The translations under genes and the position numbers were made by a program. This document shows positions 12,182 through 47,322 of a DNA stretch of 64,000 bases, in pieces; position 1 is the stretch's first letter; every line of letters begins with the position of its first letter. The notes under the pieces are model-generated. The model searched no databases, was not told where the DNA came from, and saw only the letters and a program-made list of their open reading frames with translations. Source of the stretch: Lytechinus pictus (Eukaryota); assembly GCF_037042905.1 (NCBI RefSeq), contig NC_087251.1:14634001-14698000 (forward strand), in the 5' to 3' direction.

Positions 12182-12257
12182 TAAAGTAAGGTGGATCTCT
12201 TTGTTATTTCAGAAGATAAAAATAAAAGTGATCATGTACCTGTTGTAAGTATATGAA

Positions 12258-22056: not shown

Positions 22057-22257
22057 ATGGTGTCCACCATTCAAACTTTAACCACTGCCACGATGCTAGT
22101 TGTCATGACGTCACATCTTGCCACTGCCAACTTCGACCCTGCGACTGCCATTGATTGCTACGTACACACCGGAATGAAACATGTGGCGGAAAAAACCGGC
22201 TGCGACTCAAGCGTCATCAACGTCCGGGGTTGCTGGGGTAGATGTGACAGTTACCAG
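22057..22257 (+). CDS. GPB5: GPB5-like coding exon 1 (67 codons)
   Basis: ATG at 22057, donor CAG|GTACTT at 22257/22258. An upstream pyrimidine-rich acceptor (ttcctcttaatcttcgcacag, ending 22013) implies an upstream non-coding exon. Confidence 0.92.
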
Positions 22258-25200
22258 GTACTTATCTCGATAAAAAAAATATACGACTTTCATTTTGTAC
22301 TGCCAATTGTACCGCAAAGACTCATGCCCATTAATTTCCACCCTTCTCTCTTGAATACTCCATTTAACTTCTAATATCAACCTAAATCATGCATGCGACT
22401 TTGTACTCAACTACAATATACATTATTGGTTAAAATAAAAGATGATTACACACTTTGTATATTCGGGGTTTTTAAGATCATTATTTACGATTTGTCTCTA
22501 TTTTCTTGTTCCTGACCATAGGTTCCTCTGATTGTTTTTTCGAATAATACAAGATCTCTAAACTAGTAACGCGCATTATCTTGCTAATGGTTATATAGGT
22601 AAATATATGTATAGACGACCCCAATAGAACAATGAGGTTCACAAAAAGTTTATTACTGATTATCAAGTAAAATTTTATGCTGACGATGATGGCACCAGCT
22701 GTTTGTTGGGTGAATCAGAACACAAACCGCGTCTAATGGTAGTAGATTTCAGGGTCCATTAGTAGAGTTACTTAAAAGCAATTTGATTTACTAGTAGCTG
22801 AAGCTGTATGATTTTTGACCAGTATATTGAGGTATGCATTAAGACTATCAATAGACAATAGGCATCCCTAAATGTATTAGCACTGCCACTGATGATTCTA
22901 AAACAAATTAGCCCCAAATTAGCCCATATAACCAAAAAATACCAGCGGCGCAACTACGCTTTTCCTGTATTCTCGTTTCATTGTGTCTGTTCGATTCTAC
23001 ATCCTGAATCTTCCAGAACCTTGTATTCAATCTCTTATCACACTTAGAATAGTGTTAGAATCTTCCCCATTATCGCGCTTAGTTAAATCCGTATCACTTT
23101 TCATTGGGAAAAGGAGGTGGTTGTGCGTTTGGGTATTGGAAGGTGTAAATGGTGGTGATTAAACACAATAAGATAATTGAGAGGCTAACCGGTTTAATAC
23201 TCAGAACTTTGGTTCTCCAGCATCATGGTCGTGTAAACCATTGTCTTTTTCTGGCCTTGGCTTCCCCGGTAAAAACTCGTATGTTCTGTATATTTGGAGT
23301 AGCAACCATCACAAGAGTAAGAATTGTGTTGACAAAAATCCTGTAAGAAATATCGATATTTACCGCATTATTAAATAAAACGACTTGTTCCAAGATGATC
23401 CCAACGGTCCCCAGATAAATTCAAAGGATGTGTTCCTATTTGTTTTGCAATCCTAAGTCGATTTCCGTCAAAAAACATCTAGAAAATGTACGTCCGTCAT
23501 AGCCGACCGTAGTTTAAAAAAAAAGCCATAATTTTTACTCCATGACCAAAAAAATGTATGGGCGCCAACGATGACTTACAGCACAGATTTTCAAAAGGAG
23601 ACCGGTTGTATGATTTTGACGTTTGATTTTTATTAAAATTCGAAATAAAGTTTTGGTGCACACCATTTCCTGTTGGAGTGGTGTGCGTACCTAACCGCTA
23701 TAGTTGAAATAGGTAATTCAAAATAAATAGGCGAAACCGCTTTCCTTTCTTTGAAAGCTAAGCAACATTTTCCATGGTCATGAATATGAAAAGTTTACAT
23801 GGATCCAGCTCACTCTTTTCTCAAAGAATATTTAAGAATTAGTCGAATCCACGTCCTTTGCTTCATAGTATGGTAAAAGCTACACTCTAAATTACAGGGA
23901 TTTAAAATAAGTCCAGATGGACTGTAGCTAGGGACCAATCGATTTCTGAATTTAGTTTTAATCCTAACGACTTAAATTTAAATCTCAAATGATTTAAATT
24001 TAAATCTTTCGAGATTTAAAAATGAATCTTAAGGATTCAAACTAAATCCGGAATTCGATTGGTCCCTAACTACAGTCCATGTGGACTTGTTTTAAATCCC
24101 TGTAATTTAGAGTGTACTTAAATATAGACCTTACACATTGCCGTAATGGGGCCGTAATCGCTCTGCCATAGAGGCTGAATCCATTGCTTGCATGCGTTGG
24201 TGATCTCCAGCTAGCGCATCTCTGACTTCATATATCACTTATGGGAGGGCGCTATGAGATTATGCCGTCATGTTCAAAAGGTCTATTTTCTCTTGACTGA
24301 ATTATTTCAAGTGAGATTGATTTTGTCGTAAAAATTCAGCATTTTTTTTAAAATATTCATTCAGGTTTTCTGCCTTCTCTAAAACCTATAAGATCAGTAA
24401 TGCATATTATATAAGTTCTCCTTTGTCTTGTTTGTCATTGGAAAAAAGTTTATGCAGAAAAAAAGCAAGACTTAAGATTGAAAAAAAAACTTGAGGAAAA
24501 GGGAAAATTGAGATGCGTAAAATAACCTGGGGACACTACTTTCATAATATGCAAAATATTAAGATATGCGGATTTCAGAGAGAAGAATTCGATCCCTTTT
24601 CCCAAGTAACAGGCTCCGTGGAACCGGAGAAAGTACCAACTGTCATTTCTTCTTGGTCAGTCCCGCCCCCCCCCCCCCACTTTCAAAATCGTTCCACGGC
24701 CCCTAAGCAAAAGAAAAAGTAATCCTGTGTCGACAACATAATTGAAACTGACGATGGATTGATGAGGGCCATTTAAAAGTTATCTTTACCTTTTGTAATG
24801 TAGATATTGGAATAGTAAATTTAATCAAATAACCGCTCGATCTCCTCATCCCAGGGAGATTAAGTCTTTTTAATTCATTTAGATGCACATAATACATGAT
24901 CATTGGTCTGATATTTAATTCTTTAAAGTGGTTTTCGCTTAACTCGCCAAAGCTTTGATAATATTAAAAATAATAAATTGGACTTGTACCGCGCTAAATC
25001 TACCATGTAGAGTGCTTAAAACACTTTGATGATACATTCCTTGTTTATTATATTAAAAGCACTAGCGTACCTACGGGGGGGGCAGAGGGGCAGTCTGCCC
25101 CCCTGACGAGCCATCACCCATGCATGTATCCCTGCCCCCCCTGACGAGCTTGAAAGACCTTTTTGCCCCCCCCCCCCCCTGACGAAAATCCTGGAAAATC

Positions 25201-25507
25201 CTAGGTACGCCACTGGTTAAAAGTAAAAACAATCATGACAATGTGACTACGGGAAGTAGAATGTTGTAAATTATTTCATCTCTTGATTTATTTTTACCAG
25301 GTGCCATCGCTTCTTACCAAACTCTTTGATGTCAGTCATCCTGTCTGTACACCGGTTAGCTACAAGAACATCACGATAACTCTGGATAACTGCGCTCCTG
25401 GCATTGACCCGACCTTCTCTTACGTAGAAGCCACCACATGCGGTTGCAGGAAGGTCAGGGGTGGGGCCGTCCACTACGGCTACAGACCAGACTACTTTCT
25501 TCCTTGA
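22057..25507 (+). CDS. GPB5: Glycoprotein hormone beta-5-like (thyrostimulin beta) subunit; spliced CDS join(22057..22257,25301..25507), 135 aa
   Basis: Spliced protein MVSTIQTLTTATMLVVMTSHLATANFDPATAIDCYVHTGMKHVAEKTGCDSSVINVRGCWGRCDSYQ|VPSLLTKLFDVSHPVCTPVSYKNITITLDNCAPGIDPTFSYVEATTCGCRKVRGGAVHYGYRPDYFLP. It has a signal-peptide-like N-terminus and the GPB5 hallmarks CWGRC, HPVC, L.NC.PG.DP...Y..A..C.C. The phase-0 GT-AG intron (22258-25300) follows CWGRCxxxx, the conserved GPB5 intron position. Confidence 0.93.
22600..23100 (-). pseudogene. Possible highly decayed Penelope RT remnant in the GPB5 intron
   Basis: Degenerate WYFL, RIISGS and GAIIVS pieces occur in the order expected for FYxLPK / RPIISG / ILVSxD; frames are broken. 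Confidence 0.3.
23883..24114. mobile_element. Fold-back (palindromic) MITE in the GPB5 intron
   Basis: Near-perfect inverted arms of ~85+ bp (CACTCTAAATTACAGGGATTTAAAA...); TA flanks. Confidence 0.88.
25060..25215. mobile_element. hAT-like MITE in the GPB5 intron, 85 nt before exon 2
   Basis: Ends CACTAGCGTACCTA / TAGGTACGCCACTG; 8-bp TSD ATTAAAAG / GTTAAAAG. Confidence 0.8.
25301..25507 (+). CDS. GPB5: GPB5-like coding exon 2 (68 aa + TGA)
   Basis: Acceptor tttatttttaccag ends at 25300; frame continues from exon 1; stop TGA at 25505-25507. Confidence 0.92.
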   Translation: MPSLLTKLFDVSHPVCTPVSYKNITITLDNCAPGIDPTFSYVEATTCGCRKVRGGAVHYGYRPDYFLP

Positions 25508-28500
25508 GAGTTAGATTGATTTCAATTTATAAGTTTCCTTTGCTACTGAAATGTCTGAATGTGTCGTTGCCTGAAGTCACCACAATGCAAAAGAAACATT
25601 GATGGTTGAAACATGTCCCTGTTTCTTTGCACTTTAGTTGATAGAAGAAAGGGAAAAGTGCCGGTGCATTCTCTAGTTTAGGTTTATTTTCCATGATTTC
25701 CATCTTTTCAACGATTTAATTGTCATTATGGTTTCCGTAGTCGTCATCAGCATCACCCATATCGTTCTCACGAGTATTTATTTTAAGTAAAAGGTGCAAT
25801 TGAATGATACTAAACAATGTATGGTTGGTATTCTGACAGCGTCCATATTAGATGCAATTTGCCACAGACACATTGGACTGCTCCAGTTGTAGTCCAGAAC
25901 TACTCGAACAATTCCCGCTTCCTTAACCAGTATGCAACATTTTGACCATGTAGTGGTAGAACATACAGCCACTTTAATTTACCCAATTCTATTTTTTGCC
26001 ACGTTTACACTAGAAATATGTTACCGTTGAACTATAAAACAGCGCAACGCCTTCGAGCATTCCTGCTTTCCCCAAAAAGACAAAATGAACATAATAATTA
26101 AAATTTCAGTTTAAAAAAGAGTTTGTTAAAAGGTATATGTATCAAAGCTGTTCTACCCTTCATTTGTGTGCAGCTTACTGTCCTGGAGAATAGTCTACTT
26201 TTCAGTTAATCCCAAATTATTTTGGATGCGCGATAATGGATTGCTAGTGCTTTCATCAAGTACAAGAATATTGAATAAGAATTTAAAAAGTGTGGAATGA
26301 AAGCTAGATTTATTCTGAACTTAAAACCAGGTTAATTTACGGATATGCCACCTTGTATAACTACTAAATGTTTAACGAAATATAATCTTGTTCATGAAAT
26401 GGCGTTTTCTGACATTCCACTGGTTATTATGTAAAGTAATAATGCAATATAATATTTATGGTCATGTTATTGAGGATATAGATTTAGTTATTTCCTTAAA
26501 AATATCGTTTTTTAATAAATCACGTTCCTTCATTATTTTTTGGCCCCCTTTTGTTTTATATTATTTATTTTATTAGAAAATAAAAGGTTTACAGCTTACA
26601 CACCTTTCATTTATAACCAGTGTTCTTTTTACTAATATGTTCTTATTATCGTAGTTTTCACAAAACATTTAATTATCCCATCATTACGCTCATTGGTAAT
26701 GTTATTTTCGTTAATACTCGTTTAGATATAGTTATGAAATTTAGTTATGAAGGCTTGATAGTAAAAAGATATTCGAATTTTCATAACTGATTTTTAAGAA
26801 AAATCTTTAAACACTGCTATCTATTCTAATATTTGCATATGAAACTATACAGGAGAAATTTTAGTAGAACGCAGTCTATCATGTGTTTAATATACTTCAT
26901 GTACGAAGATCATGTTAACTGGCAATTGCCAGCTTACGTTTCCATTATTGTATGACAGCGATTAATGACATGAACAACCTTTTGTCCGAGTTGTATCTGG
27001 CAGTTGGTGTATAATGTGGCAGACGATTGTTCATCACTTGTTTTAATAATGGATGTTCTAAAAATTATCAGTACTATCGAATGCATGTAAGTTTTTTTTT
27101 TTTTTCTTATTACCGGTGATGTCACTCACATCATATCTCATTCTAAATCTTGAAGAGAGAGAAATATAGTATTCTGGGGTGTTACGAACGACCAAAACTT
27201 GTATTTCCACTGAATCAAGTTCCCAATCATTTCAAGTGTCATAGGCCAAAGTGGAAAGGTGATTTTAGAATAAAACCCATTGTTAACCAATACTTGAAAA
27301 CAAGTTTCTAAGCTTGATAAGGGTTGCATGAAATACAAATCCACTGACATAGCATGAAAACATTTCCCAGTCTTTCGCACAGTCATGCGTAACTTTGCGA
27401 ACACTTTCATGACACAACCAGAAATGTTATATCACATTATCGTCTTAAAGATGGAAGACTCCGTACTCTCTTTCTCTTTTATTTAATTTTCCTGACGCCC
27501 TCGACGAATAAAGATTTATATTTATTTGTAATTCATGGAAGTTTTAGTTTTTTATGTAACTATAACTGATTAACTGTACCAATATTTGCGGTTTGTTCTT
27601 GCCAATTCGAAGTATGAAGAGAGCCTGAATATCGATTTAAAAATTGTACTCGTTATCATTTCAGAGATATTGCAGATAAATCATTAAGATAAGTTTACCT
27701 TTCTCCGGCCAACAGGCAACAAGCGTAGATTCGAGCAGCAAATTATCCAGGGGGAAGTTGGTATTTGGGGTTACCGTCCGACACCAACCCACCACCCACA
27801 CACACACCCTCACACATATCTACATACAGACACGATTTAATGGTGGAAATCGAGGACATATTTTTCGGAAAATTATGTCATTGAATAATCAAGGAATTGT
27901 GTGTCAGTAGGTCTCTCATACACAAAATGTTATCATAAAATAAAAAATAAAAATATTGGAGTTGAGGACATTTCAACCATACTCCCCATACGATAGAACA
28001 CTTAATTTGGGAAAGTGTGCAATGTATCTGTGTACCGAGGGTGTCATCGTTGTGAAGTGTGGTATCGGTGTGTGTCCTCGTTTTCCAGCATGTGTTAGTG
28101 TACATACCCACCCATACACACACACATTTATAAAGCGTGGCGTCACATATGACTGCCTGTTCTACGGTCAAATGTATGTGGGTTTTTTTTTTTATAGAAG
28201 GACATGATGAGTAATAAATTCTTATAACACATTTTTTTCTGATAATCATTAGTCTGGATGGAATTCATTCTACCCGATCAGTTGTTATTTATGTCGGCTC
28301 TCTAATTTACTTGTAAGTTTATTAGAAGATCAGTGATAATAACATAACTATACAAAGTCTTTTTGTTTATGAAAAAAATTACCTATCTGAACATCTATCG
28401 ATAGTTTAAAAAAAAATCAATATTAGAAGCGTTGAAATTGTTGTTAATGCTCCATTGCAACGTTTATTTGAAAATAATATATATATATATATATTAAAGA

Positions 28501-28654
28501 AAAGTAATGTAGAGGAAATACATGAAAGGAAATTAATTGATTTAAAATGTATGAAATAAATTGTTTTATTGGTTCATCGATTGACTAATTCATTCATTAA
28601 TAGATATATTTTCTATATGGTTTAATTTACATTTTGATTGAGAGATTGACTGAT

Positions 28655-28825
28655 CAGTTGGTCGGTCGGTCGGTCGGTTGGTCGGTCGGTCTGTTGGTTG
28701 GTCGGTTGGTCGGTCGGTCGGTTTGTTGGTCGGTCGGTCGGTCGGTTGGTCGGTCGGTCGGTCGGTCTGTTGGTTGGTCGGTCGGTTGGTCGGTTGATTG
28801 CTTGGTTGGTCGATTGCTTGATTGG

Positions 28826-28852
<27 letters not shown>
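28655..28852. repeat. Compound tetranucleotide microsatellite (GGTC/GGTT)n(GATT)n
   Basis: Direct reading. Confidence 0.95.
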
Positions 28853-28857
<5 letters not shown>

Positions 28858-28900
28858 ATTAAAGAATTATTGGTTAATTGGTGACTTAATCGATTACCCG

Positions 28901-29039
28901 TGCCTCGTTGTATAAAAGTTACCAATGTGGTAACTTTAACATCCAATGATAAATATCAAGAATCCTTGATTTTGATTGGCTGTTCAGCATCGTGGCTATG
29001 ATAGTTACCATAATAGTAACTTTTATGCAACCGCGCCCC
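28901..29039. mobile_element. Small inverted-repeat MITE
   Basis: CGTTGTATAAAAGTTAC ... GTAACTTTTATGCAACCG inverted ends. Confidence 0.6.
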
Positions 29040-29391
29040 GGCCCGTTGAATTTAAGAAGTGATAATTTGAACTATTGATTGATTTGTCTGATTGATTGGT
29101 TTGATTTATTGATTGTGTGTATAAAATGATTAATGGTTTTGATGGATGTTTTTTAGGTAAAATAATCTGGTAGTCTTTCATTTATCGGTTGACTAATAGT
29201 TGGTTAGGTTAGTGAAGATAGTGAAAGTTGGGTTCAGCGGATCGGCTGTTTGACTTCCTGATTCAATTGATTGATTGATTTTAATGCGACACATGATGAT
29301 TGTTAGCAGAAACATTCATTTTTAGATGACAGATTCTGGGAAAGTAACAAGTTATGGAATTAAACTTTGCTTGGTTTGGACTTTCGATTAA

Positions 29392-29769
29392 AGGTATTGT
29401 TTAACTTTGTGAGCAGCCGATTTAAAAAAATCTCAAACCAAGATGAAACATGTGTACAAGTGCATGTATTAGAACTAATAAACCCTGAAAACAACCATTA
29501 TTGAGAATGAAAAGCTAAAACTACAAGGCAAACCCCGATTTTGTAAATAGGCGTCTTAAAGACGCCTAAATAGTACACATAAGTGTATGGGATGAAATTA
29601 AGATGGTGTTTTCGGTCACTTTATATTTCAATTTTTGAAGCACTAAATAATTATTTTCGAACACAATTTTTTCTGGGCTTCATTTTTGTAACATATCACA
29701 GACACAGGTGACAAGTGTGACCTTCTAGCTCAGATTTTAAAAAAGTCAAACCAATGTTAACCAATCACT
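29392..29769. mobile_element. TTAA-flanked (Kolobok-like) MITE
   Basis: TTAA on both sides (29388-29391, 29770-29773); imperfect TIR AGGTATTGTTTAAC / GTTAACCAATCACT. Confidence 0.65.
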
Positions 29770-29869
29770 TTAACTGAACATGAAGTTCATGCTCAATATT
29801 TCAATTTCCGTTTCAATTTTCAGATTGGGATATAAATCATTTAAATATGTTGGTGTTGATGGCTTATTC

Positions 29870-30220
29870 GAAAGCTTTTGATGATATTTATCAAATTTTC
29901 ATCTACTTATTGGTGTACTCATCAGATATATGTCTTTCTATTACATATACAGTGTACTTTAATAAAATGATTGATGTTTTCACATTATGCGAAAGCTTTT
30001 GATGAACTTATTAAATTTTCATTTACTTATTGGTGTACACAATAGATATATGTCTTTATATTACATATACAGTGTACTTTAATAAAATGATTGATGTTTT
30101 CACATTATGCGAAAGCTTTTGATGAAACTTATTGAAATTTCATTTACTTATTGGTGTACACAATAGATATATGTCTTTCTAATATATACAGCGTACTTTA
30201 AAAAATGATTCATGTTTTCT
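29870..30220. repeat. Minisatellite, ~120-bp unit x3
   Basis: Units start GAAAGCTTTTGATGA at 29870, 29991, 30111. Confidence 0.92.
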
Positions 30221-33008
30221 TATTAATAAAATATCAAAAACTTTCCAATATCTCATATCGAATGTAATTTCTTTTTATCATGTTCTTATCATATCGGAGG
30301 AGGTCTAAAAGATGATGAAATAGTTTGTATTGCCTGCTTTTATGTATTACAAATATCGATGAGGATATATGGGGTGCCTCTGATTTTATTTGATATGTTT
30401 AGCTCGTTCCTATGTTACCTTCTCTCACGATGAGATTTGCTTACATATTTAGTTAGTTAATTGGTATTATATCAGGTTATGTAGGCATGTAGTTTTTGAG
30501 GGTGTGCGTAAGGGTGTGTGACGTGGGGTCAGGATTCAGATCGGAATATGGGATACGTCCCCAAACTTTACTGGTGGGAGAGTAATGGACAAACATCCCC
30601 CATGTTTTAAGGTGGAAAAATAATGTATACAAGTCATGTATACATCATGCAGTTGACCGGTTTGGAATCATTACCCCTCCCCAAAGTAAAAGAGACATTG
30701 TCTATGCCACTGTTTAGGTATATTTGAGAATTGATGAATGAGTGTGGACAGTGTGCGTATGTGCGTGTGTTGAGCAAGGGACTTTGATTTAAATCTTTAG
30801 ATTATATGTATGTTCTTGATGGTGATAATATATGGTTCTTGATTGCCTCTTTTGACTAGTATTTATGAGATTAACGCTCTACCTCTTTATGATAATGATG
30901 ATAATCAATAAATGGACAAAAATGCGGCAAATTAATAAATTAATGAATATTTGATTAACAATAAATAATGATAAATGATAGTACATTTTCATTATACTTT
31001 TTTTTTCATTTTAATCACATTTTATAAATTATTTTGGCCTTGTGTGTCTTCAATCAAACATTTTGTTACATTGAGCTAATTTCGGGAAGCTTTAATAAAA
31101 ACTAATGAAATGATTTAAATATTTTCCCCTTTTACAGTGATATTTCGGTATTGTATTGATATAACATTGCATTTTTAAAATTGCAAATCAAAGTCCCCAC
31201 GACTCGTAACTATTCTATTTTTTTAAGTCGAGCAAATCACAATCCACTGTATATTTAACTGTCCGGATATACTGAATCTAAGTGTTTAACAGTCTTCAAT
31301 TACCGAGCTATTGTTCTCTTGAATTAAGGTTTGGCTACATCACCTAGGTTATCAGCAGCATTCCTTACATTGTGGCTCACTCTTTATGGTACAGATCAAC
31401 TTCACCTTTGTTTGTTATGACGTAACACCTCTAAACTATTAAGAGCAGTGATATGAAAGGTCTCCTTGGCCCCGTGAACCCATCAAGAAAAGGAAAAGCG
31501 CCTTCATTGATGAAAAATATGCTAAACCAATAATTACGAAGGATGATGATGTTTTTATTTTGTATATTTTTTTTAATTTTCGCAAATGTTTACACCTGCA
31601 CTTTTCATTTGTAAATTTCTGGACTGTTATAAAAGCTTTTGCGCTTTACTCGATTTTGGACATCCTTTAAAATGAATTTGCGGATTCCCAGTATCGCTAT
31701 CTAGTATCTAATACTTCTTATTTGGGATTGGAGTGTTTTCGAAAAACAAATTAAAAATCAAAAGGTGGACCCAATGTTCTAGCCTTTCTATCCTGGTAAA
31801 TATTGAGTTGAAAACAGGTGAACAAGTCATATCAGTTGACGTCATCCCGTGGACACGCCCAAAATCATACGTCATAGATTTATGGCCAAAGAAAGTTCCT
31901 GTCTCAAACGCCCACTTTCACTCATCATGAAAGTCGGAACTTTTCAAAGGTCAAGTGAAAAGCCCCTTCTATTATCTTTTCTCTCCTCCCCCTCTCTCTC
32001 CCCCTCTCTCTCCCTCCCTCCTCTCTTCCCCCTCACTTTCTCTCTCTCTTTGTCACTCTCTTCTCTCTCTATCTCTCTCCCTTATTAGCTCTCTCTGTAT
32101 ATTGCACACCCTTTTCTATTCAATCTCTTAACTTTACTCACTCTCCCTCCCTTCTCTTCATCCACCTTAAGATTGCTACTCCTTATGGAAAGAAGGAAAC
32201 TTTTTACTTAGCGATATACTGAAAGATATACGCAAAATCAGTTTCATGGGAAAATCAACTCCATTCAAATGCTTTATTTAAGATCGGCCTACTTTATAAT
32301 TTCTATACCTATTGTTTTTTCAAGAATTATAAACTATACTGACATAAACCTTTGATTAAAAACTTACTTACCACGTTGCTACTTTAATTTTTTTTCATAA
32401 AGTTATCACCCTGAATGATTTTCAGCATAGGATTAAAAGAAAATACTCATCTAACTGGACTGTGGTAAAACGGAGGAGACATTGGTCCATTTATTTTTTT
32501 TTTATTGTGAAAAAGTTGTTCTAATCTGGCAGCATTTCTTTGATTTAATCATTTAGAATGTTAATGATATTACCTTCAATGTAACCAATTCCGATTTTTA
32601 TTCTTGTTATTGAAATATAATATTTGTATCTGCATATTTAATAATAATCTCTCCAATATTGTTCAATTTAAATCCTTTGTTAAGAAAAAAAGTTGAATAT
32701 TTATAAGCAAAGAAGAATCACATTTTATCCGCCCATTTTAGGAAATGGCGTTTTAACCCTCCCTTTTGTATCCCTATACCATTTCTCAAATGCCACTTGA
32801 ATATTTATGTCGGTTTTGCTTTCAAATACTTCCTTATTTACTTCGAATTTTAATTCTGGTCTTTCAGCAGCGATCCTCATAAGATTCCATGTCTTCGTTT
32901 TTATATACTATGTGTCTCAATAAGGTCGTTCCCGAACAATTGTTATTTTGCCATGTTTTTTTTATTCTGCCACCCCCTTTATATTATTGTGGTTGTTATT
33001 CTTCTATA

Positions 33009-33762
33009 CAGTGCGTCCCAGAAAAAACGAAACCGAGATTTAGCGATGTTTTATCATAACTTTAATCATAAATAAAATAGACGCATGATTGAGGAAAAAC
33101 AATTCGAAGAAAGGATGCCAAAGACTCATTTGGCGGGGGGTATCTGAATTTCAAAAAGAACATCACATGACTAAAAAGTTCAATATCTTATCTTTTCTTT
33201 GATACCTAAATCACAGAAAATGGTCAAGTAGTAAAAAAGTTATGATCCCTCGAAACAATGCTTGTATTTCCATAATTTCATTAAATTAACGTGTTTTCAC
33301 CGGTTTCCAACTGAAGCTATCGCACGGTAACAAAAGACTTAATGCATGGCTGATCGTCAACAAAACGGAGTGTCAAGTGAGTTTGAACGCTAGCCTGTAA
33401 AACCTCTTCATTTTATGAAATTATTGAAATTCAAGCCTTAATTCAAATAACCAGAACTTTGTTATTTCTTGATCATTTTCTGTAATTGAGGTATCAAATT
33501 AAAGAGCAGATATCGAACTTTTTAAAAATGTGGTTTTCTTTTTAAAACCCAGATACGGCCCGCAAAGTGACTTTTTGGTATCCCCTTTTCAAATTGTTTT
33601 TGCTCACTCATGCGTGAATGAGAAATAATCTAAGTAATTTCAGATGAAAGAGGAGATTCTATGCTTTAAAATGGTAGGTCATTAATTTTGTCTATTGTAT
33701 TTGCGATTAAGTTATGATAAATCATCGATAAATCTCGGTTTCATTTTTTGTGGGACGCACTG
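33009..33762. mobile_element. Tc1/mariner-like MITE, 754 bp
   Basis: TIR CAGTGCGTCCCAGAAAAAACGAAACCGAGATTT with reverse complement at the right end; TA TSD. Confidence 0.88.
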
Positions 33763-34441
33763 TATATATCTCTGTTTCCAATCATGGAACACTTTTAGAT
33801 ATTGTGATTGTTTTGAGATTGGTTTTGTTCACTAAAAAAAACACAAATGTAGAAAAAATTACCACGTTACATGGAAATCATGGTATTAAATGGTAGATAA
33901 TTTAGATTATTAGATAACAATATATTAACCTTGGAAAAGAGAATGATGCCGAACTGGTAGAATGAACGATATATGTTCAAAAGCATTTCCTTTTCTATTC
34001 TGTATTGAATGAAAATAATATGTCAATGTGCGCGGGAGTGTGTGTACATTTTGTGTTGGATTACGTTGATGTGAGATATTTCCAGATGGGTTGATGTGAT
34101 ATTTTCATTTCTCATTTCCACATTCTCCACAAATCTCTCTCCCCCTTACTATCTCTATCTTTCCCTCTCTTTCTCCCAGTTTCCGTTGCATACACAACGA
34201 AGTATACACATAAACACCTTTTTTTTTTACACAAGCATACTTTTAACCACGCGCAAAAGCATCCCCTACACACACACCCCGACACTTATAACACAAAACA
34301 CAAACACGCACTCTTACAATTCCTTCCACATGCCTATGAAATACTCACATACACCCGCACACGTAACTCATTCTGAACGTTTAAGCGACAATTAAAAGAC
34401 AAAATTGAAGAAAAAAATACGAGAGACAATAATTTATATAA

Positions 34442-34447
34442 TTTATT
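34442..34447 (-). terminator. Candidate polyadenylation signal of GPA2-like gene (would give a ~2.6-kb 3'UTR)
   Basis: AATAAA on the minus strand, with an upstream TGTA and a downstream GT/T-rich tract; other AATAAA hexamers exist in the interval. Confidence 0.35.
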
Positions 34448-37026
34448 TCAAATTATTTGTACATTTCATAATACAATTTTTGTGAGAGAAAGGTTGTAAT
34501 GGCAGTATATTCAATATCCATCATTGCCAGTATCCGTAAATAAAGTAAATTTCAACTGAAGAAAAGGCAATGAAAAAAATAAATCCTGAAAAGTCATAAA
34601 CATGTATTGACAGGTTGCTTGCAATGATATGAAATTACTGTGTTGAAGTTTGTTACAGAGTTATTGTAGTGATGTAGTTAAGATGTAGAATCTTCATCCC
34701 AACAGTTTAGAACAAATGTATTCACATATCGCCCTGCCCTGTAGGTTTAACATTTGAGCTTTGTCACTTTGGACTACAATAATTCATTTTTGATTGCTGA
34801 ACCATGGCTGAACTAGTCGTGGTGATTCATATTGTCATCCATATTAAAGGAGAAAAACAGTATCTGATTTTGATTATACTCGTTTTAATTGATAATGGTC
34901 ATTTGGCCGTCAATTAACAGACAGTTCATTGAAATTGCCCCTGAAGTCTCCATCATTTCCAAAAACACGAACCATACTGTCCTTGACCATGTTTGAAGCG
35001 CAGACGAGACGGACAGATTGCCGCCAAAATAAGAACGCCTTTATCATATATCGTCTGCCACCATCATGGCTATTGTCTGGTAACCTTGTTGATATGTTTG
35101 ACAAATAAAAGGAACAACATACTGTCACTTCAAATAATCTATCAAGAATTTATCCCATATAAGTGATGAAATATGGAATTGTGGAACGGTGTCACGTGGA
35201 TAGTTTTCTGCATTTGAGTGAGCTTTTATTTTCGCCCAAAATGACTTCAAATCGAAAGAAAAATACAAACTCTTTGAACTGTAAAAGGGTTTTATTTTTA
35301 TTTATTTTGTCTTATCCAATCTCATATACCTGCTATTACATAATAAAAGAGACACTTTTTTTCTTATTTTACCAATGTAGACGCCTTTAGAAACCCCAAA
35401 AATATTATTTGCTCGTTGCCTCCAGGTTATCACTGTACTAAAGTTTCAAGAGTTGCATGAATCGGTACTCAATTGCTTAATTTCTTTGAAAGCGTTTCTA
35501 CATAATACGAATATTCTATATTAAGATAACAAATCCCTTCCCCTGACCAACAGTAATCTTCACCATATTTTGTGTATATACTTGTATAAACAACTGTAAC
35601 AAGCGATTCCCTTGTAAATTATGAGAAATAAAACATCTTCAAAAGGTTCTTTGTTCATGAAAGTTGTCAGCAATGAATTAATGTATAAATTCTGTAAATT
35701 TCAATGAATCCTGTATTTAAGCGGTAATATTTGACTCGTATGAAAGTAAATGTATGACACTTTCCATTAGCTGTGGCAACCTTTAAGAAACCGAAGGGCT
35801 ACAAACAGCTGCACCTTAATAATTGAACGAGATCCGGGTACATTATATCATGACAAATTTCATGTATCCGTATTTTCTTCAACATAATCACGAAGTAACA
35901 TTTATTTTCATCAACGCAATTTCGCAAGACAAGAATAAAATTAAGTTCACAACTAAAATTATTTTATTCGACATGTTCATGTATTTAATTTAAAATGGAA
36001 CATAACTATACATCAACGTTGCAATAAATACAGATTCATAAATACTATCTACATTTAACACAACATGTTTACGTTTTGTGTATACTAGAAAGCTATAATA
36101 GTACTTTTTCAGTTTTGTTTAGGAGAGAAAATGTACCTATAAAGCAAAAAAAAAATTGAAGTGATCTTTGAAATAAATGATCACTTAAGATTACTACATG
36201 TATTTCTAAAATGATTAGGAATGAAACTGAACGAAAATGTATGATACGTTAAGGAAGAGGTGATAGCCCTGAAACTCATACAGTGATGAGCACAATGAAA
36301 TTCAGCTAGAAAATATTCGATAATCACTATGAATTATTTAAGTTAATGGAATTTCATTGCGCTCAGGGAATGATAACGTAATGAAGAATTTCTTGTTGCG
36401 TCAGATGATATGAAATAGATATATAAAAATCCTTTAAGTGAATGCAGGAAGTGTCTATGATTTTACGTTATCTTTATCAATCTTTAAGAGATTAGAAAAA
36501 AATGCAATATATGCATCAGATGATACGTGTTTTGATCAGAATTCTCTCATATTTTATACTTCTACAGAATATGTTATATTTAGATAGAATAGATTAGAAC
36601 AAAATTACAAATATCGCTGGGCTGCAATCAAATCTGAATAAAATTACAGAACGGAAGTATTATTTAATCAAATAATCAAAAACCTTAATGTAACAATCCA
36701 AGAATCTCTTCATGTTGTTTGAAGTACAATAGTTTTAGGTCCACGTTAGACTTTTTGAATAAGATATTACATCTAATTCAGAATGATTGACATAATAAAA
36801 CATGGCTTCCGAGAGCGGACTATAGTACATTTTGATATAAAGGTAGGCATATAAGCCGAATAAAGTAAACAATATATGATTTATTTCCTTTGCATCAAAC
36901 CAAATGGGAAAAATAATGATAATAAAATGGGGGAAATAAAAAAAAATCTACTTGGATATCAACAGAAGTCGTATTGATAAAGCATATGGCGTCTACAGAG
37001 AGGAGGGGGTTACATAATCAGTGACG

Positions 37027-37125
37027 TCAGTCGCCTATTACACAAAGGGAACACTCACAGGACGCCGCTGATTTAAAGGTATCTACATATTCATAATTAT
37101 CCAAGCACTGTAACCGGATATTAAC
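37027..37125 (-). CDS. GPA2: GPA2-like coding exon 3 (32 aa + TGA)
   Basis: Acceptor ttttctcattcgcag; translates VNIRLQCLDNYEYVDTFKSAASCECSLCVIGD*. Confidence 0.92.
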   Translation of the reverse strand, partial: VNIRLQCLDNYEYVDTFKSAASCECSLCVIGD

Positions 37126-40100
37126 CTGCGAATGAGAAAAAGATAAAAGAAAACGAAAGCGTGATAAAAGAGTTGTATCTATGATATTAAGGCATCCATC
37201 AATACTTTATTGGCAGGGGACGGTTAGGAAATTAACATTTTTCTAGTGTCATACCATTCCGATTGAATGTGAGAGTCCATCTTGCCTCTCATTTATACGC
37301 CGTGTTTTAAGTTGGTTTTAGAAAAAGCAAAAAAATCAGATAAACATCATAACAAAAGTTTTGCGAAAATCGAAGAATAAATGAGTTGTGTGACGCCACA
37401 AGCAAGAAGCCAATTTTAAGTAATCGGAATTTCATGCGCTCTTGTTTTTAATAGTTCGTGATTGTTTTATCACACGTCTTTCCAAAGCAGTGTGTATAAA
37501 ATCATGTATATTGAAACACAAGTACAATTATTCCAGATTTTCTAAAAAATAGCAATACGATCTATTTTACATCACATAATGAAGAAGCCGATTGCATGTG
37601 ATATCACCAGGTGTAAACTTTAGAAACTCATACCGCTCTTATGGGTTTTTTTTCAAATATTTCTCTTATTTTGCCGTCTTTATAAAAAACAGCTTAACAA
37701 TGAGGTAGAATAATGTCTACATATTCTTTAAAAAAAAAACAATACCTGCTAGTTAACATATGTATTTGAGTTCGAATTTCTCTCATGAGTGCTGTTACTG
37801 AATCAATCTTTGGCTGCGAACTAACATGTTTATTACGCATTGAAAGTTAACTTTCCCTCCAAAAATGTGGCTAGTAAGTCATGAGGTGGCGCTCACTCAA
37901 GTTAAGTTTCTTGTAAACTTGCAGATAGTCAAGGAAACTATGCAGTGATTGATGATTTTAATACTTCCAAATAATAACTAAAATGGTTTTCAGATAATTA
38001 AAGGCTATTTGAGGATCAGAAAGGAAAATATAAGAACATTAAGATATTGTTAGATTTGTGACAGATCTTGACTTTTTCTTGGTTTGCTATCTTGTTTCAG
38101 AGATTCGTCATTTAACATAGATACGTTAGTTGTAATAACTTGATTGGTATTTTACCCAATGTTCGATAAAAATGGACATGTGTTTTATTTTTTAAGTATT
38201 AGGTATCAATTCGGTCATAATGAAAAAAGATAACAATATCGACATGGGATAAACAATACAGAAAATGGGGGACGGGGGATCTAGAATTAAAGAGTCTTCC
38301 TGGTTACCCTATTTCGACTGAACGTAAAATATGAAATATAATTTATTTCTAAATTAATCCATTTATAAACCTTACAAATTCCATACACTGTAAAAAAAAA
38401 TTGTTAAATTTAACCAGAACGAGTGTAATTATGTTTCCAACCAATTTTGGGCAGTATTTTACCCAATTCGGGAAGCATATTGTCCAGTAAGGTTTAAAAA
38501 TGAGCAGCAATTACTTTAGAATGGGCCAAATTTTCATCACACTGGATAAATAAAAAGGCCCAAAAGAAATGCCAATTGTTGGTTGGACACATGTTTACCC
38601 TCATGGAGCATTTTTACCCAATATTTTTTAGAGTGTAGTGAGCATAAATTGATGACTGACTCATCAAAATAAAAATAGAAGATAGAATAGATTGCTGCAG
38701 CTAAAATTTTTGATACAGAGAAATATATTTCGAAATCCAGTAATAAACCTGTAAATACTAATTTGCGAAAATTTGACTACAATCTGACTGCATTGTATAA
38801 CTGTCCATTTTACGTGAAAATAACATTGTCTTACTATTTTTCTATCTACAGTGAAATGAGCATTTATTAAGAAATAATACTTACATCGTGTGTTGTGGCA
38901 ATGGAACAACATGAGCCATGTGTTGTAAAGATTTGTGTATAGTCGCTGTTTTCAAGTGTAGCCAGGTTTGATGGATATGAATAAGACTGGCAGAAACCGC
39001 GGCATGCATTCATTTGAACTTTAGTTTCCCTACAACCGGGTATCCGAACCTTCTTTGTGTAACCTGCAGAATAAAAGGAATAAAAATGAAACGACATGAT
39101 ATAAGGTATGGAAATAAATGCAGTTTCAGAGCTCATCATTCTAAGTGGTATACTTGCAAGGCCGTTTGTTACGGTCATTTCATTCTTTCAAGAAAATGTA
39201 TTTTTTATCAATTCGGTCTTTATAAGAGAGGATGATTGATGTTACTCAGGATTTGACAAGAAAAAAAATGCACTTGATGCCATTTATTTTGTAAATCGTT
39301 TAGAATATTTTTGCATTCCATGCAATTTATTATGAATATTTTATGATTTTTGTATGAAATAAAAAAAATGAAAATAATGGGACCATTGACGACGAACGAT
39401 CACAACGAGGAAACCACTTTCCAAATTATATTGATACCAAAATATTTAACATCTAACTTTCGTATGGAACTTTTATCCAAATTACAAAGGATTTCTTTTA
39501 AATATTTTCAGAAATCGAATGACCTTTACACATCATTGGTATCTCTAGAAAAAAATTCGATGCCTTAAACAGCAGTTTCACCACTTTCGACTTTTACTAT
39601 TATTCATACACAGGCATTTGAGTACACTATGAGTGGGCAGTGTTGGAGATGAAATGAAAGGTAAATAGTATGTTCTCTACATTAAATTAGAGGTTCTTAA
39701 ATGTCCCTTGAGTGCATTAAGCTAATCGTTAAACCAAATATAAAACTCCAGAGCGATTCTGAATTCATACTTTCTGTCTCTTCAAATGTCATATGTATTT
39801 ACTTAACACATTTAGAAGTCTTGATTCAATCATTTGATTAGACAAAAGCATGGGAGAATGAACAAAAATATTTTTGTTTTCTTGTTTTCTTATAGTCAGT
39901 TATAACAAGTCTGTATAAGAGTTTACGCATTATTAGGACAATATGATGTAAAAACCGTGGACATGTGTTTATGACTACTATATTCTATTCTAGAGCGATG
40001 TTTCAGGTGACAGTCTAATGACGCTATTGGCAAGCCAAACAACTCCTATGCCGCCAAGTCCAGCTTTAAAAGATGAGCGAGAGGTTTCGCGTCCCAGTGG

Positions 40101-43100
40101 GAAATTACTTTTGTACATATTATTTTTTTATTATTATTATATTGCAGTCACAATAGTTGGAGTAAATATGGAATATGTAATACAAGTATGATAGTTATTT
40201 TACGGTTCTTTTTTTAAGAATGTGACATTTGCCAAGAAATACGCATGTATCAGACCTGAGGGTGTCCTTTATATTTGTCCTCCATTTTGTCGATTATAAA
40301 TCTAAAACTGGTTCGTATTGAAAGACGTGTATTACGCTTCAACTAACCTATCAAACTCCCCACTAATGACCTTACACCATCTTTAATTCCACCCTAGCGG
40401 TATACGTTTATCTCAAACGGACTTCCAATTATTAAGACATCATTTCTCACCGACTCAAAGAGTGTAAGGAAAAATGGAGGGAAATTATTTCAGAAGCATG
40501 TTTGACCTTTCCTCAAGCTAGATTAATTATTCTATAGACATGTAAGAGCATCATTCAGGCCCAGTGTTTTTATTTCAGTGCCAGAGATGCGGACGAAAAA
40601 GGGGTAAGCCGATTTTTTCTGGTGGAATTGGCTTTCAGTTTCTGCTATCGGCATTGAATTTGAAATGTCTGCCGTATGTTTTATTCATTGTTGATCTGCG
40701 TAAGTACTTCTCTATTCGCATGAATAAGCACGCCGATATTATACCTTGACATAATTGTTATTCAACTTCTGTTAATTCCATCACTTTCTCTTAATATATG
40801 ATCTACATTCCGTAAATGCATTATACAACCCCCATCATCAATTCTATATACTCTCAGAAACAAGACTTTTTCTCAGATACAGTGTAAGTGCATATAGGCA
40901 TAGGGAATATTTAACTTTAAGCCCCGATAAAATATTAGCGTGCATCAAAGTCTAGGTTCAAGGGTGTAAAAGGTGAAAAAGCAGCATTTGTTTTTTGTTT
41001 CGGTTTTCTTTAATTTTACTGTTATATTTGTAAACGCAAAACTTCATCTTGGTCTACGTACCATGCGTACGTATGCGAAAGAATTATCGCTTCGAAGATA
41101 TGGATATGACGAGAAAAAATGCAAAGATCATAATAAAACTTCATCGTAGAAGCCATTGACTAATTTTACGATTAAATACAGAATATGAAATAATATACAA
41201 GGTTTTGAAAAAATGTAGCTGGGGGTGATGAATTATTCACTGATGCTGGATCGCCGCGGCGATTACAATTTTCTTCCGATAGACGAAGCCCGGAGGAAAA
41301 TAGCAATATTGCCTGTCCAACCGAGGGTGAATAATCCCAGCCAATACTTTTGTCAGAAAAGTCTGGATAATTTGTTTGATATCCCTTCATCTAAACGATA
41401 GATCTCGGTAACTTTGCCCTAGCTGGTCCGTACCCCCATTCTGGACCAAATTCGGTAACCAACTGCAGCTCTGTGGAATCAGTGTCTGCACAGTTACTTC
41501 ACCAGGTCGTTCGGCTGAGATAACTGGCTTTTCGGTGTCCAAGACTCGAACAGAACTCGGTAGAACTACGCATGTTAAATATTTAACTGAGCATGCGCAG
41601 TCCTGTCCAGGGAAAATAATTTTCAAAAAGTCATACGAACAGAAATTTAACGAAGCTAAATATTACTGAGCTGAGTTCAGGATACAAAATTACAACGGAC
41701 GGCCTTTGTGAAAATGCAAAGCTTGTCTAAAAAGCGAGCACTAAAACTTAGTTTCATACGTAAACTCGTTCTATTCCATAAATTCTGGTTGGAATAATGA
41801 TTTAGAGATATATACACTATACAGGTAACATATATTTACCAATATAAGAATTTGAAGTTTATAAGTCAAAAGATAAAATATAATTACAGAGAGGTGAGGG
41901 GACGGCACAAATGACGTTGAGAGAAGGTGCAGTCGCAAATCATTAACCATTCTTTACCATTTATTTATTATTATTGTTGTTGCATAAGTTGCCGTTGTTA
42001 TTATCATTATCATCGTTATTTCTATTGTTTTCCTATTAACATAGCATGATAAGCGTGAATGGTAGAGCAATTGTTTTTGTTTCATTTTTTTTTTAATTCA
42101 ATCTCTTTCCCCTTGTTTCGCTCGAATGTAATGCAAATTATATGCAGTCCCATCAGAATCCATTCTTTCTTCTCTGTGATCATGTGGTTTTTAAAATGGG
42201 AATAAGCCCAGGTTCGGAAGATGAAACCGATAAGAAAGTACGAGGAAACGCGATTAGCCTCAACTGAAGTCAGATACATCACCATACTCTTCCATTAGAA
42301 AATACAAGTTTGTTTATTTCTGCGATATATCTTATGGAAAATTATATGTCTTCCATAATTTTCTCAACTGCTGAGACGGTACAAAGTCTTTGGTCGTAAA
42401 ACTCGTGCAGAAAGGAGAAGAGTGCTGGGGTAGAATGGAAATATATCCAAAACGTCATGAATCCTTTGCCGGCGCTCTATTCATTCAATTTGGTGTAATT
42501 GCTAATGTATATCTTATCAAGTCATGTCATCAAAATAATTCGCGAGGAGCGTGGATCAACAAGGCCAGGAGACCTATACTCTAATGAGAAAACTGGGAAA
42601 GGGACAAAATAGATTGACAAAAAATAATTGCAAGGCAGGATCGAAAAAAGGCGTTACACGTCATCGAACTACAAAGTCACTCCGGGGACCAGAGGTGAAT
42701 AAATAATACCGACCAGGGATTGGTGATTATTTGCAGCGTACTCACTAAGAACGTGTTTGCTCGTTAAACATCAAGATGGGAATCGGGAAAAGATGAGACG
42801 GGGAAGAGCCCAGATGGGAACTAAGATGAACAAAACAATGTAACAATTTGTGAGTAGAAGAAGATATATTTAGAAGCATGCGGACAGAAGGCGCTCAATG
42901 AAGTGAATTAAATCATATTGTTTGTTTTAAAACCAAGCTCTGATTTATGTCTGTTTTTGCTGATATCCGATACATTCCATCATTCATGTCTGTTTTCATT
43001 GATATATGATATAGCTTAGATCAATTGTTACTAATGAATCAAAATTGCTAGTTGAATATTATGGTTTGGGTTGTTACTGATTATCAATACATGAATTTAT

Positions 43101-44731: not shown

Positions 44732-44792
<61 letters not shown>

Positions 44793-47322
44793 AATACAAT
44801 ACAATTACAATACAATTTTTATAAATAATTTCAAGAATTTCTCATAGGTTTATTATCATTATTATTGCTCTACTCTCCTCCATACATTATTAACAGTTGA
44901 TTTCAAGATTTGGGAGGCCATTGTCACCTCCTTTTATCGAGATTTATTTTCTTGATATATTATAAACCTTTATCCTTTCTATTCTTGCATTTTCATGATT
45001 GTGGTGGCGTCATAATAAGTGATTGTTACGTAACAATGATATCCTCACGCGATAATTTTTACAGCCTGCGCCTCCAATATGCTTTTTTTATTATTATTAT
45101 GATGGTGATGCTGTTTTGTGCGCGGTTCCATGACTACCACAATCATGAATGTTATTATTTCAGTTCTTGTCTCTGTGAGCTTTATTGTATCCCTGAGGAA
45201 GACGTATGTTTAACGTCGAAAATTTGGAATTCAAAATAAACTGTTGGAACTAAGTACAATGCATTACCACTTTGCCTCATTAATATCTTCTATGTCCAAC
45301 ACGCGGAACGTAATATCGTTATATATATATATAACGAGAGAGGCGTGGATATATGTACCAATCGCTTTGATCATTGTTTATAATATATGTGTGAAGAGTA
45401 GAGTAGAATCAAGGATGAAGCAAAGTATACACTATGTTGTAAAGCTTTCGGCCCTGGCCTTCTTCAGTTTTTATTTGCTAAACAAAACAATCGTTATATA
45501 TATATATATATATATATAAATGAAAAATGTATGAAAAATGTTCTATGAGGCGGTCGTAGAGCTTCAAAATTTTACTCCTATATTGGTCAAGCTTTCGATC
45601 CATGCGGGTCTTCATCGGGACGAGTGTGGAGGTCCGGTTGGTCTACATCTGAGATTTTGAGAAGTAACAGTGATTCTTAACGATCTGTGTTAAGTGGCTG
45701 TGGCGTCATATCCGTGTGTGTTTGGTGGTGGGGTGTGAGTGAGGGTGTGCGTGTGTGTATGTGTGTGTATGTGTGTTTTTTATCCTATTCTTTACAATCT
45801 ACTTTGACAAAATATCTGACATTCATTTGTACACGTAGAGGATGGACACGCTTTTTCCATTATACATTTAGTTCGTGTTCAACTAAGTACTGAATCACGA
45901 AATTTTGATTTGTTAATTGCTTTTTTTTTTGCTTTGGAGGATATCCTTCATGAAAAGTGTCCGAAAATGGGGGATTTTTCATCCCCGTTAAAAACATAGG
46001 TAAACTAGTGTAAACCGTTCGGTTTATAATATAATCTCTATTACTTAAGTAGTAGCCTCACAAGATACAGTCGATGAGCATGTTTTATCCGTCTATATCG
46101 ACCGTAATCTATGATCATCCAATAATATGCACTAAATCTATCTGAATATCAAAACTGAGTCTTAAGTTACCTGTGGTTATAGAGTGGGTGTGTGGTAAAC
46201 CAATGACGGGGGAGGGAAGGAAAAACAAACATGCATCACAAAATATAAAAATGTTAGTTCAGTATAAATTCTCAGTCTATCATATCTGCCCTAAATTGAG
46301 GAAAAGTACACCCGAAGATAGACCTTTAAACAGAAAGATTAAATATCATATAAACACAATATTGTACATTATAATATGAATAGTCAAATAACTTTTGCAT
46401 TGCAGGTCAAGATGAGATAAGTTTGCGGATACCCTATGAATCCGCCAGAGTACATAGCTATACAGTTTTGCAACATAAAATAAAACGGCTGTCACATGAA
46501 ATGCGTTTGTTACTATTGTTACTAAACTTTGCCTCAGATTTTTACTATTCAAGAGATAATGCACTTTGAATCATTTACATTTTTCGCTGCCTCTTTCTCA
46601 TATTTCATGTTTTTTCTGCCTCTCTCTCTCTCTCTTATTATCATGTTTCAATCATTTGCAAGTTACTAATTACGACCTAGGACAACCTGAAAATTAAGCT
46701 GAAAAGCACCACTTTATAAGAAAATAATTTAAAAGAATGAAAGGGAGTTCAAAACTTCGTCAAGATTTTCACCTTAGAGTCTAGGACGAAGCTGCTTTTT
46801 TGATTCACTAATTTTCAACAGAGACTTCTTGGTTGCTCTTTGTCATGAGAAAACTGACTGATACCGAAAACGATTTCCTCCAAATAGAGATAAATAATAA
46901 TTAGAACATTTCTATTCTCCGACAATACTTTCAACGAGTAAATGTTTGATCCTGGAAATTTGTTAAATCTGAAATAATGGAGTATATATTCACAGCTTGT
47001 TCTTTGTCATTAAGGGTGTTTCACAGATCATTTTTTCCGTACGTTGTGGAGTGATAAGACCCTATTGACTTAAAAAAAAAGACTAAACTCAGTCTTCTTC
47101 AACGAATACTCTTGAATTGTAATTAATAGCACATAGATACATTTTTTAGATTAGTCATGGTTTTTTAAAGAACCTTGGGATTCATAATATCAGATGGAGA
47201 ATGTACCTACCGACAAGATGACATCCGGGACTTTCCCAGTAATGTGCATGTGTTAGCATAGGAAGCCATAAGCCCAGTAGCACCACGAGTACACAGGCCA
47301 ACATATACGAAGACAACTTCAT
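37027..47322 (-). CDS. GPA2: Glycoprotein hormone alpha-2-like (thyrostimulin alpha) subunit; complement(join(37027..37125,38885..39063,47211..47322)), 129 aa
   Basis: Spliced protein MKLSSYMLACVLVVLLGLWLPMLTHAHYWESPGCHLV|GYTKKVRIPGCRETKVQMNACRGFCQSYSYPSNLATLENSDYTQIFTTHGSCCSIATTHD|VNIRLQCLDNYEYVDTFKSAASCECSLCVIGD. It has a hydrophobic signal peptide and 10 mature Cys with GPA2 motifs PGCHL, NACRGFC.S...PS, CC, V.I.LQC, SA..C.C..C. Phase-1 and phase-0 GT-AG introns join in frame. Confidence 0.94.
38386..38635. mobile_element. CAC-ended MITE in GPA2 intron 2
   Basis: Ends CACTGTAAAAAA / TTTTTTAGAGTG, TA flanks. Confidence 0.65.
38885..39063 (-). CDS. GPA2: GPA2-like coding exon 2
   Basis: Acceptor ttccttttattctgcag; donor GAT|GTAAGT; lies within ORF 38867..39178. 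Confidence 0.93.
43910..44290. repeat. Purine-rich low-complexity tract
   Basis: GAA/AAAG-rich; generates spurious F/L/S-rich ORFs on the minus strand. Confidence 0.85.
44735..44790. repeat. (TA)n microsatellite
   Basis: Direct reading. Confidence 0.95.
45190..45621. mobile_element. Penelope-like retroelement terminal remnants with three minimal hammerhead-like cores
   Basis: CTGAGGA-A-GACGT..ACGTC-GAAA (+, 45193-45225); CTGAAGA-A-GGCC..GGCC-GAAAGCTT (-, 45467-45442); CCGATGA-A-GACCC..GGATC-GAAAGCTT (-, 45618-45589). Confidence 0.6.
47211..47322 (-). CDS. GPA2: GPA2-like coding exon 1 (signal peptide to PGCHLV)
   Basis: Hand translation of the minus strand; donor G|GTAGGT at 47211/47210; acceptor ttttttccag (AG at 47354-47353) lies 30 nt before the ATG. 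Confidence 0.9.

Follow-up and report, generated by a model that had tools for sequence, protein, structure and literature searches.

A convergent GPA2/GPB5 locus in the sea urchin Lytechinus pictus with an eight-cysteine GPB5.1-type beta chain

The window analyzed here is a stretch of 64,000 nucleotides (nt) from Lytechinus pictus (assembly GCF_037042905.1, contig NC_087251.1, positions 14,634,001 to 14,698,000), in which two genes for cystine-knot proteins face each other tail to tail. The question is whether these genes, GPB5 on the + strand and GPA2 on the - strand, encode the two subunits of a thyrostimulin-type hormone, and how such a pair might work. We found that two transcribed and spliced genes encode a 10-cysteine alpha2 chain without a glycosylation sequon and an 8-cysteine GPB5.1-type beta chain with one sequon. 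The most probable reading is that of an ancestral GPA2/GPB5 locus, whose products would form a non-covalent dimer acting locally on a type-A LGR, with the tail of the beta chain replacing a lost loop. The locus is already known and typical of invertebrates, and its gene models are exact for a laboratory sea urchin. The additions made here are small points, namely that the linked paralog is the 8-cysteine GPB5.1, that this form has a hemichordate relative, and that a conserved tail stands in place of the lost disulfide. The 8-cysteine GPB5.1 type was previously reported in echinoderms. The features of the locus are as follows (X1 and X19 are sequencing runs, UTR is untranslated region).

9710..10119, + strand: GPB5 5' non-coding exon; end firm, start placed from a 408-nt contig part only; donor GTAAGC at 10120.
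22014..22257, + strand: GPB5 first coding exon; ATG at 22057, coding 22057-22257; signal peptide; knot cysteines 34, 49, 59 and 63.
22258..25300, + strand: GPB5 phase-0 intron; 3,043 nt, GT..AG; spliced out in an X1 contig and one X19 read.
25301..25507, + strand: GPB5 last coding exon; cysteines 83, 98, 114 and 116; sequon N90; stop TGA at 25505-25507.
25448..25504, + strand: GPB5 cysteine-free tail of 19 residues; Val119 and Tyr126 at the two lost-cysteine places; YGYRPDYF motif.
25508..28447, + strand: probable GPB5 3' UTR; to 26542 on the spliced contig, 26687-28447 assigned from strandless contigs (X1 contigs 1 and 2, depth 29 and 30).
47211..47352, - strand: GPA2 first coding exon; ATG at 47322, coding 47322-47211; signal peptide; cysteine 34; acceptor AG just above 47352.
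Between 47211 and 39063, - strand: GPA2 intron 1; 8,147 nt, GT..AG, phase 1.
38885..39063, - strand: GPA2 middle coding exon; cysteines 48, 58, 62, 89 and 90.
Between 38885 and 37125, - strand: GPA2 intron 2; 1,759 nt, GT..AG, phase 0; spliced out in RNA.
37027..37125, - strand: GPA2 last coding exon; cysteines 104, 120, 122 and 125; stop.
34566..37026, - strand: probable GPA2 3' UTR; 36983-37026 on the spliced contig, the rest assigned from X1 contigs 4, 5 and 6 (depth 52, 34 and 40).

The two coding exons of GPB5 give a product of 135 residues, identical at every residue to the L. pictus RefSeq proteins XP_063958072-75 ("glycoprotein hormone beta-5-like"), and the three coding exons of GPA2 give one of 129 residues, likewise identical to XP_063958076.1 ("thyrostimulin alpha-2 subunit-like"). 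The accessions of both chains are consecutive, and the locus that a first-pass annotation had called hidden was in fact already annotated; the RefSeq models are partly predictions, hence their support is not fully independent. That annotation was right in describing two spliced, convergent cystine-knot genes with no gene between their stop codons, which are 11,519 nt apart, and the exon junction contexts it had outlined as motifs were all found, as WGRCDSYQ|VP in GPB5 and PGCHLV|G and THD|VNIRLQC in GPA2. A six-frame motif scan located two CxGxC motifs that lie in cystine-knot context, one at 22231 (+) and one at 39004 (-), and a PGCHL motif at 47229 (-); its remaining matches all fall in low-complexity sequence. 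The last coding exon of GPB5 by itself matches Pfam Cys_knot (E 4.2e-5).

The RNA evidence comes from four of 21 sequencing runs (X1, X19, X21 and X5), which were compared with positions 21300-41200. None of the four carries an RNA label on record, and X1 is treated as RNA on the ground that both introns are precisely missing from its contigs. One X1 contig of 1,897 nt, with no differences, skips the 3,043-nt GPB5 intron, and another of 1,104 nt skips the 1,759-nt GPA2 intron (CT..AC on the + strand); both spliced mRNAs are present in this one sample at similar depth (29 and 40). Among 1,315 million letters of X19 raw reads, one read spans the GPB5 joint and two span the GPA2 joint, and their first mates lie on the expected strands. 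Neither joint occurs among the raw reads of X21, nor in X5, whose coverage is limited to the first GPB5 coding exon. As 15 of the 52 joints were displayed, other splices may exist between the genes. Expression in the two raw-read runs is very low. Two of the three coding junctions predicted in the first pass were thus seen spliced, in X1 and X19; the third, between GPA2 exons 1 and 2, lies outside the compared positions, and the match of the X1 contig stops one base inside the intron, a result that the predicted joint permits and that supports it weakly. Further X1 contigs of similar depth at 26687-28447, 34566-35226 and 35597-36668 probably represent long 3' UTRs.

At its 5' end the locus is larger than the first-pass bounds of 22057-47322, since a GPB5 exon ends at 10119. 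X1 contig 1 carries 408 nt upstream of the acceptor at 22012-22013, positions 10007-10117 match the N-terminal extension of the L. variegatus GPB5 isoform X1 (P0008), and joining the exon end at 10119 to 22014 recreates the YGSLR junction of that isoform; together these place a GPB5 5' exon about 11.9 kb upstream. The 187-residue isoform itself, with its 52-residue N-terminal extension, is not encodable in L. pictus, as two stops interrupt it. Four upstream start codons with open reading frames (ORFs) of 11, 18, 43 and 25 codons lie inside the exon and could damp translation. The single coding intron of GPB5 sits just past the CxGxC motif. The predicted proteins P0018, P0023, P0025, P0103 and P0104 diverge or hold an insertion at this point, a comparison of proteins and not of gene structures, which suggests a shared intron site. 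The first-pass annotation had likened the intron positions of both genes to those of vertebrate GPHA2 and GPHB5, where the GPHB5 coding intron is placed after CxGxC; for GPB5 the protein comparison bears on this indirectly.

The GPA2 gene also begins further upstream. X1 contig 6 runs 781 nt past exon 2, more than the 142 nt of the first coding exon, and an acceptor AG stands just above 47352, so that one or more further 5' UTR exons must lie above 47352. The 5' UTR upstream of 47352 must come to about 640 nt or more.

No recognizable gene lies in the stretch between the two genes. Its longest ATG-started ORF, of 123 codons, is not above the chance range of 50 shuffles (mean 81, maximum 133). 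One of eight intergenic ORFs of at least 80 residues passes the Pfam cutoff, as a PT repeat; it is a translated GGTC microsatellite and no gene. Rfam and ARAGORN gave no RNA or tRNA match in the window, and tblastn with all fetched proteins below 300 residues gave no match in the window apart from the GPB5 5' exon and the five exons that carry coding sequence, and hence no further cystine-knot exon. The genes are thus neighbors without an intervening gene, and this linkage, which the first-pass annotation had also pointed to, is the published norm in invertebrates (PMC8522476). The alpha and beta orthologs lie on contigs of equal size in Strongylocentrotus purpuratus (45,225,044) and in Diadema (52,426,318), which suggests the same chromosome for both genes in these species as well.

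Shared regulation of the pair, as the first pass had supposed, found no direct support. The 5' ends, at about 9.7 kb for GPB5 and above 47.35 kb for GPA2, are at least 37 kb apart in a convergent layout, so that a shared promoter is ruled out, and the linked amphioxus genes are reported to be expressed distinctly (Dos Santos 2009, as cited in PMC9910494). A common enhancer may act on both genes. Overlapping 3' UTRs that could pair as antisense are not indicated, the UTR-like contigs ending at 28447 and 34566, with a gap of 6.1 kb that consists mainly of multi-copy repeats.

Several repeats accompany these parts of the locus. The multi-copy repeats at 33005-33766 and 29388-29773 are covered very deeply by both reads and contigs, on either strand, and the former has 78-nt inverted ends (90%), like a miniature inverted-repeat transposable element. 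At 28657-28853 and 29864-30219 there are the GGTC/TTGA microsatellite, which mimics the Pfam PT repeat in translation, and a 120-nt unit present three times at 92%. The 5' intron of GPB5 holds near-perfect duplicated blocks, 13710-14098 equaling 16309-16697 (99.5%) and 14095-16312 equaling 17573-19790 (99.96%, 2.2 kb), which either reflect a duplication of very recent date or are an artefact of the assembly. Terminal inverted repeats of 48 nt (98%), 1,081 nt apart, flank a GC-richer stretch at 11006-12182 that resembles a non-autonomous DNA transposon. Inverted-repeat pairs at 61147-61628 (78 nt, 81%) and 1060-1558 (about 195 nt, 70%) are probably old transposon remnants.

What class of subunit is each chain? 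The alpha chain has ten mature cysteines (34, 48, 58, 62, 89, 90, 104, 120, 122 and 125), including an adjacent CC pair and the L1-L3 bridge, and they map one-to-one on cysteines 8, 22, 32, 36, 55, 56, 70, 85, 87 and 90 of C. elegans alpha2. Its N-terminus shows a hydropathy peak of 3.6 over the first 20 residues, a predicted signal peptide followed by a short pro-region. None of the three sea urchin alpha chains carries an N-glycosylation sequon, and unglycosylated alpha2/beta5 hormones are known (PMC9910494).

The beta chain has eight cysteines, six in the knot plus the L1-L3 pair. The final two of canonical GPB5 are missing, their positions being occupied by Val119 and Tyr126, and with them the fifth, C-terminal disulfide; this loss is the mark of echinoderm GPB5.1. 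The first-pass assignment to thyrostimulin-type GPB5 therefore stands in that the chain groups with GPB5s, but it is not a canonical one, having eight cysteines and not ten, a point that had been overlooked. A phmmer search against 1.84 billion representatives gave 67 matches at E up to 0.001, for which 10 clusters were named, and ESM Atlas returned only generic glycoprotein-hormone clusters. We then built a tree of 46 rows, from which long, partial and mis-spliced matches were left out, and a tail-free tree of 28 rows; group labels of unnamed rows are guesses, and neither tree includes a named bursicon. In the larger tree, the L. pictus chain groups at 95/93 with those of Lytechinus variegatus, Strongylocentrotus, Diadema, Apostichopus (PIK58116, with one extra cysteine) and the hemichordate Glandiceps (XP_078001197). 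A separate clade of 10-cysteine GPB5.2 from starfish, brittle stars and one sea cucumber is also supported at 95/93, and the enclosing beta clade at only 82/75. Without tails, the GPB5.1-type clade has 86/86 (unstarred) and the GPB5.2 clade 91/92. The split of GPB5.1 and GPB5.2 probably predates that of echinoderms and hemichordates, as judged from one hemichordate sequence. A monomer model of the beta chain (14 sequences; predicted local distance difference test score, pLDDT, 72.8) shows cystine-knot strands. It best matches the beta chains of hCG and TSH (hCG beta: Z 9.1, root-mean-square deviation 3.9, 93 residues aligned), norrin lies within 1 Z unit, and the structural matches stop near residue 121.

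All seven GPB5.1-type tails (four sea urchins, one sea cucumber, one hemichordate and one unnamed partial sequence) have Tyr at the position of the last cysteine, and in six of the seven it is followed by x-[YF]-R-P-D-Y, the hemichordate having YFRV. In these tails 19-21 residues follow the knot, compared with 13-14 in the 10-cysteine rows from echinoderms and amphioxus and those of vertebrate type. Length by itself does not set them apart, since two arthropod-type rows without names reach 29 residues. Within the whole set of fetched proteins, RPD[YF] is confined to the GPB5.1-type clade and lamprey gonadotropin beta, whose seat belt closes with RPDYC. In a BLASTP alignment that bridges a gap of three residues, the L. 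pictus RPDY falls on the lamprey seat belt, with Phe133 where the lamprey has its latch cysteine; the beta-profile alignments displayed for hCG and LH end before this region. The match comprises four residues at a 3-residue offset in one vertebrate lineage and came from a search that favors such matches, for which reasons chance or convergence is a more likely source of the likeness than ancestry.

A bolder view of the tail is conceivable, though we give it little credence. The beta gene still found beside GPA2 in sea urchins may belong to an ambulacrarian-wide GPB5.1 lineage, in echinoderms and hemichordates, which gave up its last disulfide for an aromatic Y-x-Y-R-P-D-Y tail that would lie as an unlatched seat belt around loop 2 of the alpha chain, as kin of the lamprey RPDYC. 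If this were true, the seat-belt sequence would predate its disulfide latch and the vertebrates, and sea urchins would offer a form, open to testing, that stands between thyrostimulin and the stable hormones of the pituitary. Apart from this view, a conserved tail that stabilizes the dimer or sets a contact with the receptor would have a bearing on the origin of stable circulating hormones from labile dimers of the thyrostimulin type. The GPB5.1 tail, the hemichordate 8-cysteine form and GPB5.1 as the linked copy were not found in the literature searched, which covers subscription papers only in small part; the tail may be visible in two published alignments (bioRxiv 129783, Figure S5; PMC4772807, Figure 19).

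Under the favored reading, both chains would be secreted after cleavage of their signal peptides and would fold as cystine knots. They would then pair head to tail, held together by beta-sheet hydrogen bonds in the manner of C. elegans alpha2/beta5 and with no disulfide between the chains; the even cysteine counts (10 and 8) are compatible with the absence of such a link. In that system the 8-cysteine beta5 and alpha2 form a heterodimer together and are monomers alone (PMC9910494), and the subunits are ligands of the type-A LGR FSHR-1 (PMC11004728). By this analogy, a non-covalent heterodimer acting on a single type-A LGR is likely here; most echinoderms have one ortholog of the GPA2/GPB5 receptor (bioRxiv 2021.04.15.440029), and the receptor gene lies elsewhere than in the window. 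Because there is no seat-belt latch, the dimer would be labile and of short range, acting locally in a neurosecretory or paracrine manner, and would activate the single echinoderm type-A LGR and raise cyclic AMP. The conserved aromatic tail, in place of the fifth disulfide, would most likely pack on the alpha chain or on the receptor and do the job of the lost loop. On the function of echinoderm GPA2/GPB5, the literature searched reports nothing.

Several points weigh against this reading. The tree does not place the alpha chain with other GPA2s, as the three sea urchin alphas are its only GPA2 rows and sit on a long branch (3.7) with a long-branch warning. The solved structures that a single-sequence search with the beta chain ranks best are those of gremlins and of C. 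elegans alpha2 rather than beta5. Four of the seven GPB5.1-type tails are from sea urchins, and residues 122-135 of the monomer model have pLDDT below 50. The presence of both mRNAs in a bulk sample does not equal co-expression in cells. Moreover, GPA2/GPB5 dimers are labile, and separate roles of the subunits have been argued for amphioxus and C. elegans.

The last points lead to the alternative that survives best, which we still regard as unlikely: the genes would be orthologs linked by ancestry, whose chains act apart, as monomers or homodimers or in different cells, perhaps as modulators of the BMP/TGF-beta type, with the 8-cysteine beta specialised. The distinct expression of the linked amphioxus genes, the non-overlapping cells of the C. 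elegans subunits (PMC11004728) and the lability of the dimer fit such a view, as do the convergent layout and the matches of both chains to Pfam DAN (E 1.7e-8 and 2.4e-7). It is opposed by the C. elegans 8-cysteine beta5, which heterodimerises and is a monomer by itself, by the joint loss of GPA, GPB and receptor across invertebrates (PMC8522476), and by the occurrence of both mRNAs within one sample.

Less probable again is that linkage is no mark of the working pair, the alpha chain acting mainly with an unlinked 10-cysteine GPB5.2, or the beta chain with another alpha paralog. The well-separated 10-cysteine clade makes a preferred partner conceivable where starfish, brittle stars and sea cucumbers are concerned, and starfish have two GPA2 and three GPB5 for one receptor. 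In this respect the first-pass suggestion of one among several pairs agrees with the starfish, but it has no second sea urchin GPB5 to rely on, as none was named among nine beta-profile matches or the 10 named clusters in searches of limited sensitivity, and Zandawala et al. give a single GPB5 for S. purpuratus. The first-pass view of the linked genes as cognate partners is reasonable, though putative. Finally, that the chains are bursicon subunits or DAN/gremlin-type BMP antagonists is highly improbable and largely refuted, for although DAN is the best Pfam family of the alpha chain (1.7e-8, ahead of Cys_knot at 4.8e-7) and the top solved-structure match of both chains bears the molecule name "Bursicon", that chain, 8enb_A, is the C. 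elegans alpha2 of the alpha2/beta5 structure, bursicon chains have 11 cysteines against 10 and 8 here, the beta chain nests among GPB5s, and gremlin-type proteins have long N-terminal extensions whereas the first knot cysteine is at residue 34 in both chains.

Compared with known systems, the L. pictus pair is closest to that of S. purpuratus, with 127 of 129 residues identical in GPA2 (NP_001268682, CAR94703.1) and 118 of 135 in GPB5 (XP_011670839), the same cysteine pattern and tail, and only species-level substitutions. CAR94703.1 reportedly stems from Dos Santos et al. (2009), a study that may already show the gene arrangement. By published description, A. rubens GPB5-1 and O. victoriae GPB5.1 also have eight cysteines with the last two lost (135 versus 136 residues). 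C. elegans alpha2/beta5 (GPLA-1/GPLB-1; PDB 8ENB) has the same 10 and 8 cysteines, lacks the same beta bridge and has little or no glycosylation; sequence identity between its beta5 and the L. pictus chain is low, with E 9.8e-6 for the beta profile against 8enb_B, and the urchin beta has one sequon. The loss of the bridge in the two lineages is probably independent. In Aedes aegypti, GPA2 and GPB5 lie on opposite strands less than 9.9 kb apart, as a pair whose convergence is unstated (PMC3896475), and its beta chain has 10 cysteines, unlike that of L. pictus. Vertebrate thyrostimulin (GPHA2/GPHB5) and amphioxus GPA2/GPB5 share the cystine-knot alpha and beta chains without a seat-belt latch, and linkage of the two genes is also found in amphioxus and teleosts. 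However, canonical GPB5 has 10 cysteines and ends 13-14 residues past the knot, whereas the L. pictus beta chain has eight and runs 19 residues, and vertebrate GPA2 has two sequons where the L. pictus alpha chain has none. The beta chains of vertebrate LH, FSH, TSH and CG differ in cysteine count, with 12 cysteines and a seat belt latched by Cys III-XII, compared with eight cysteines and no latch in L. pictus.

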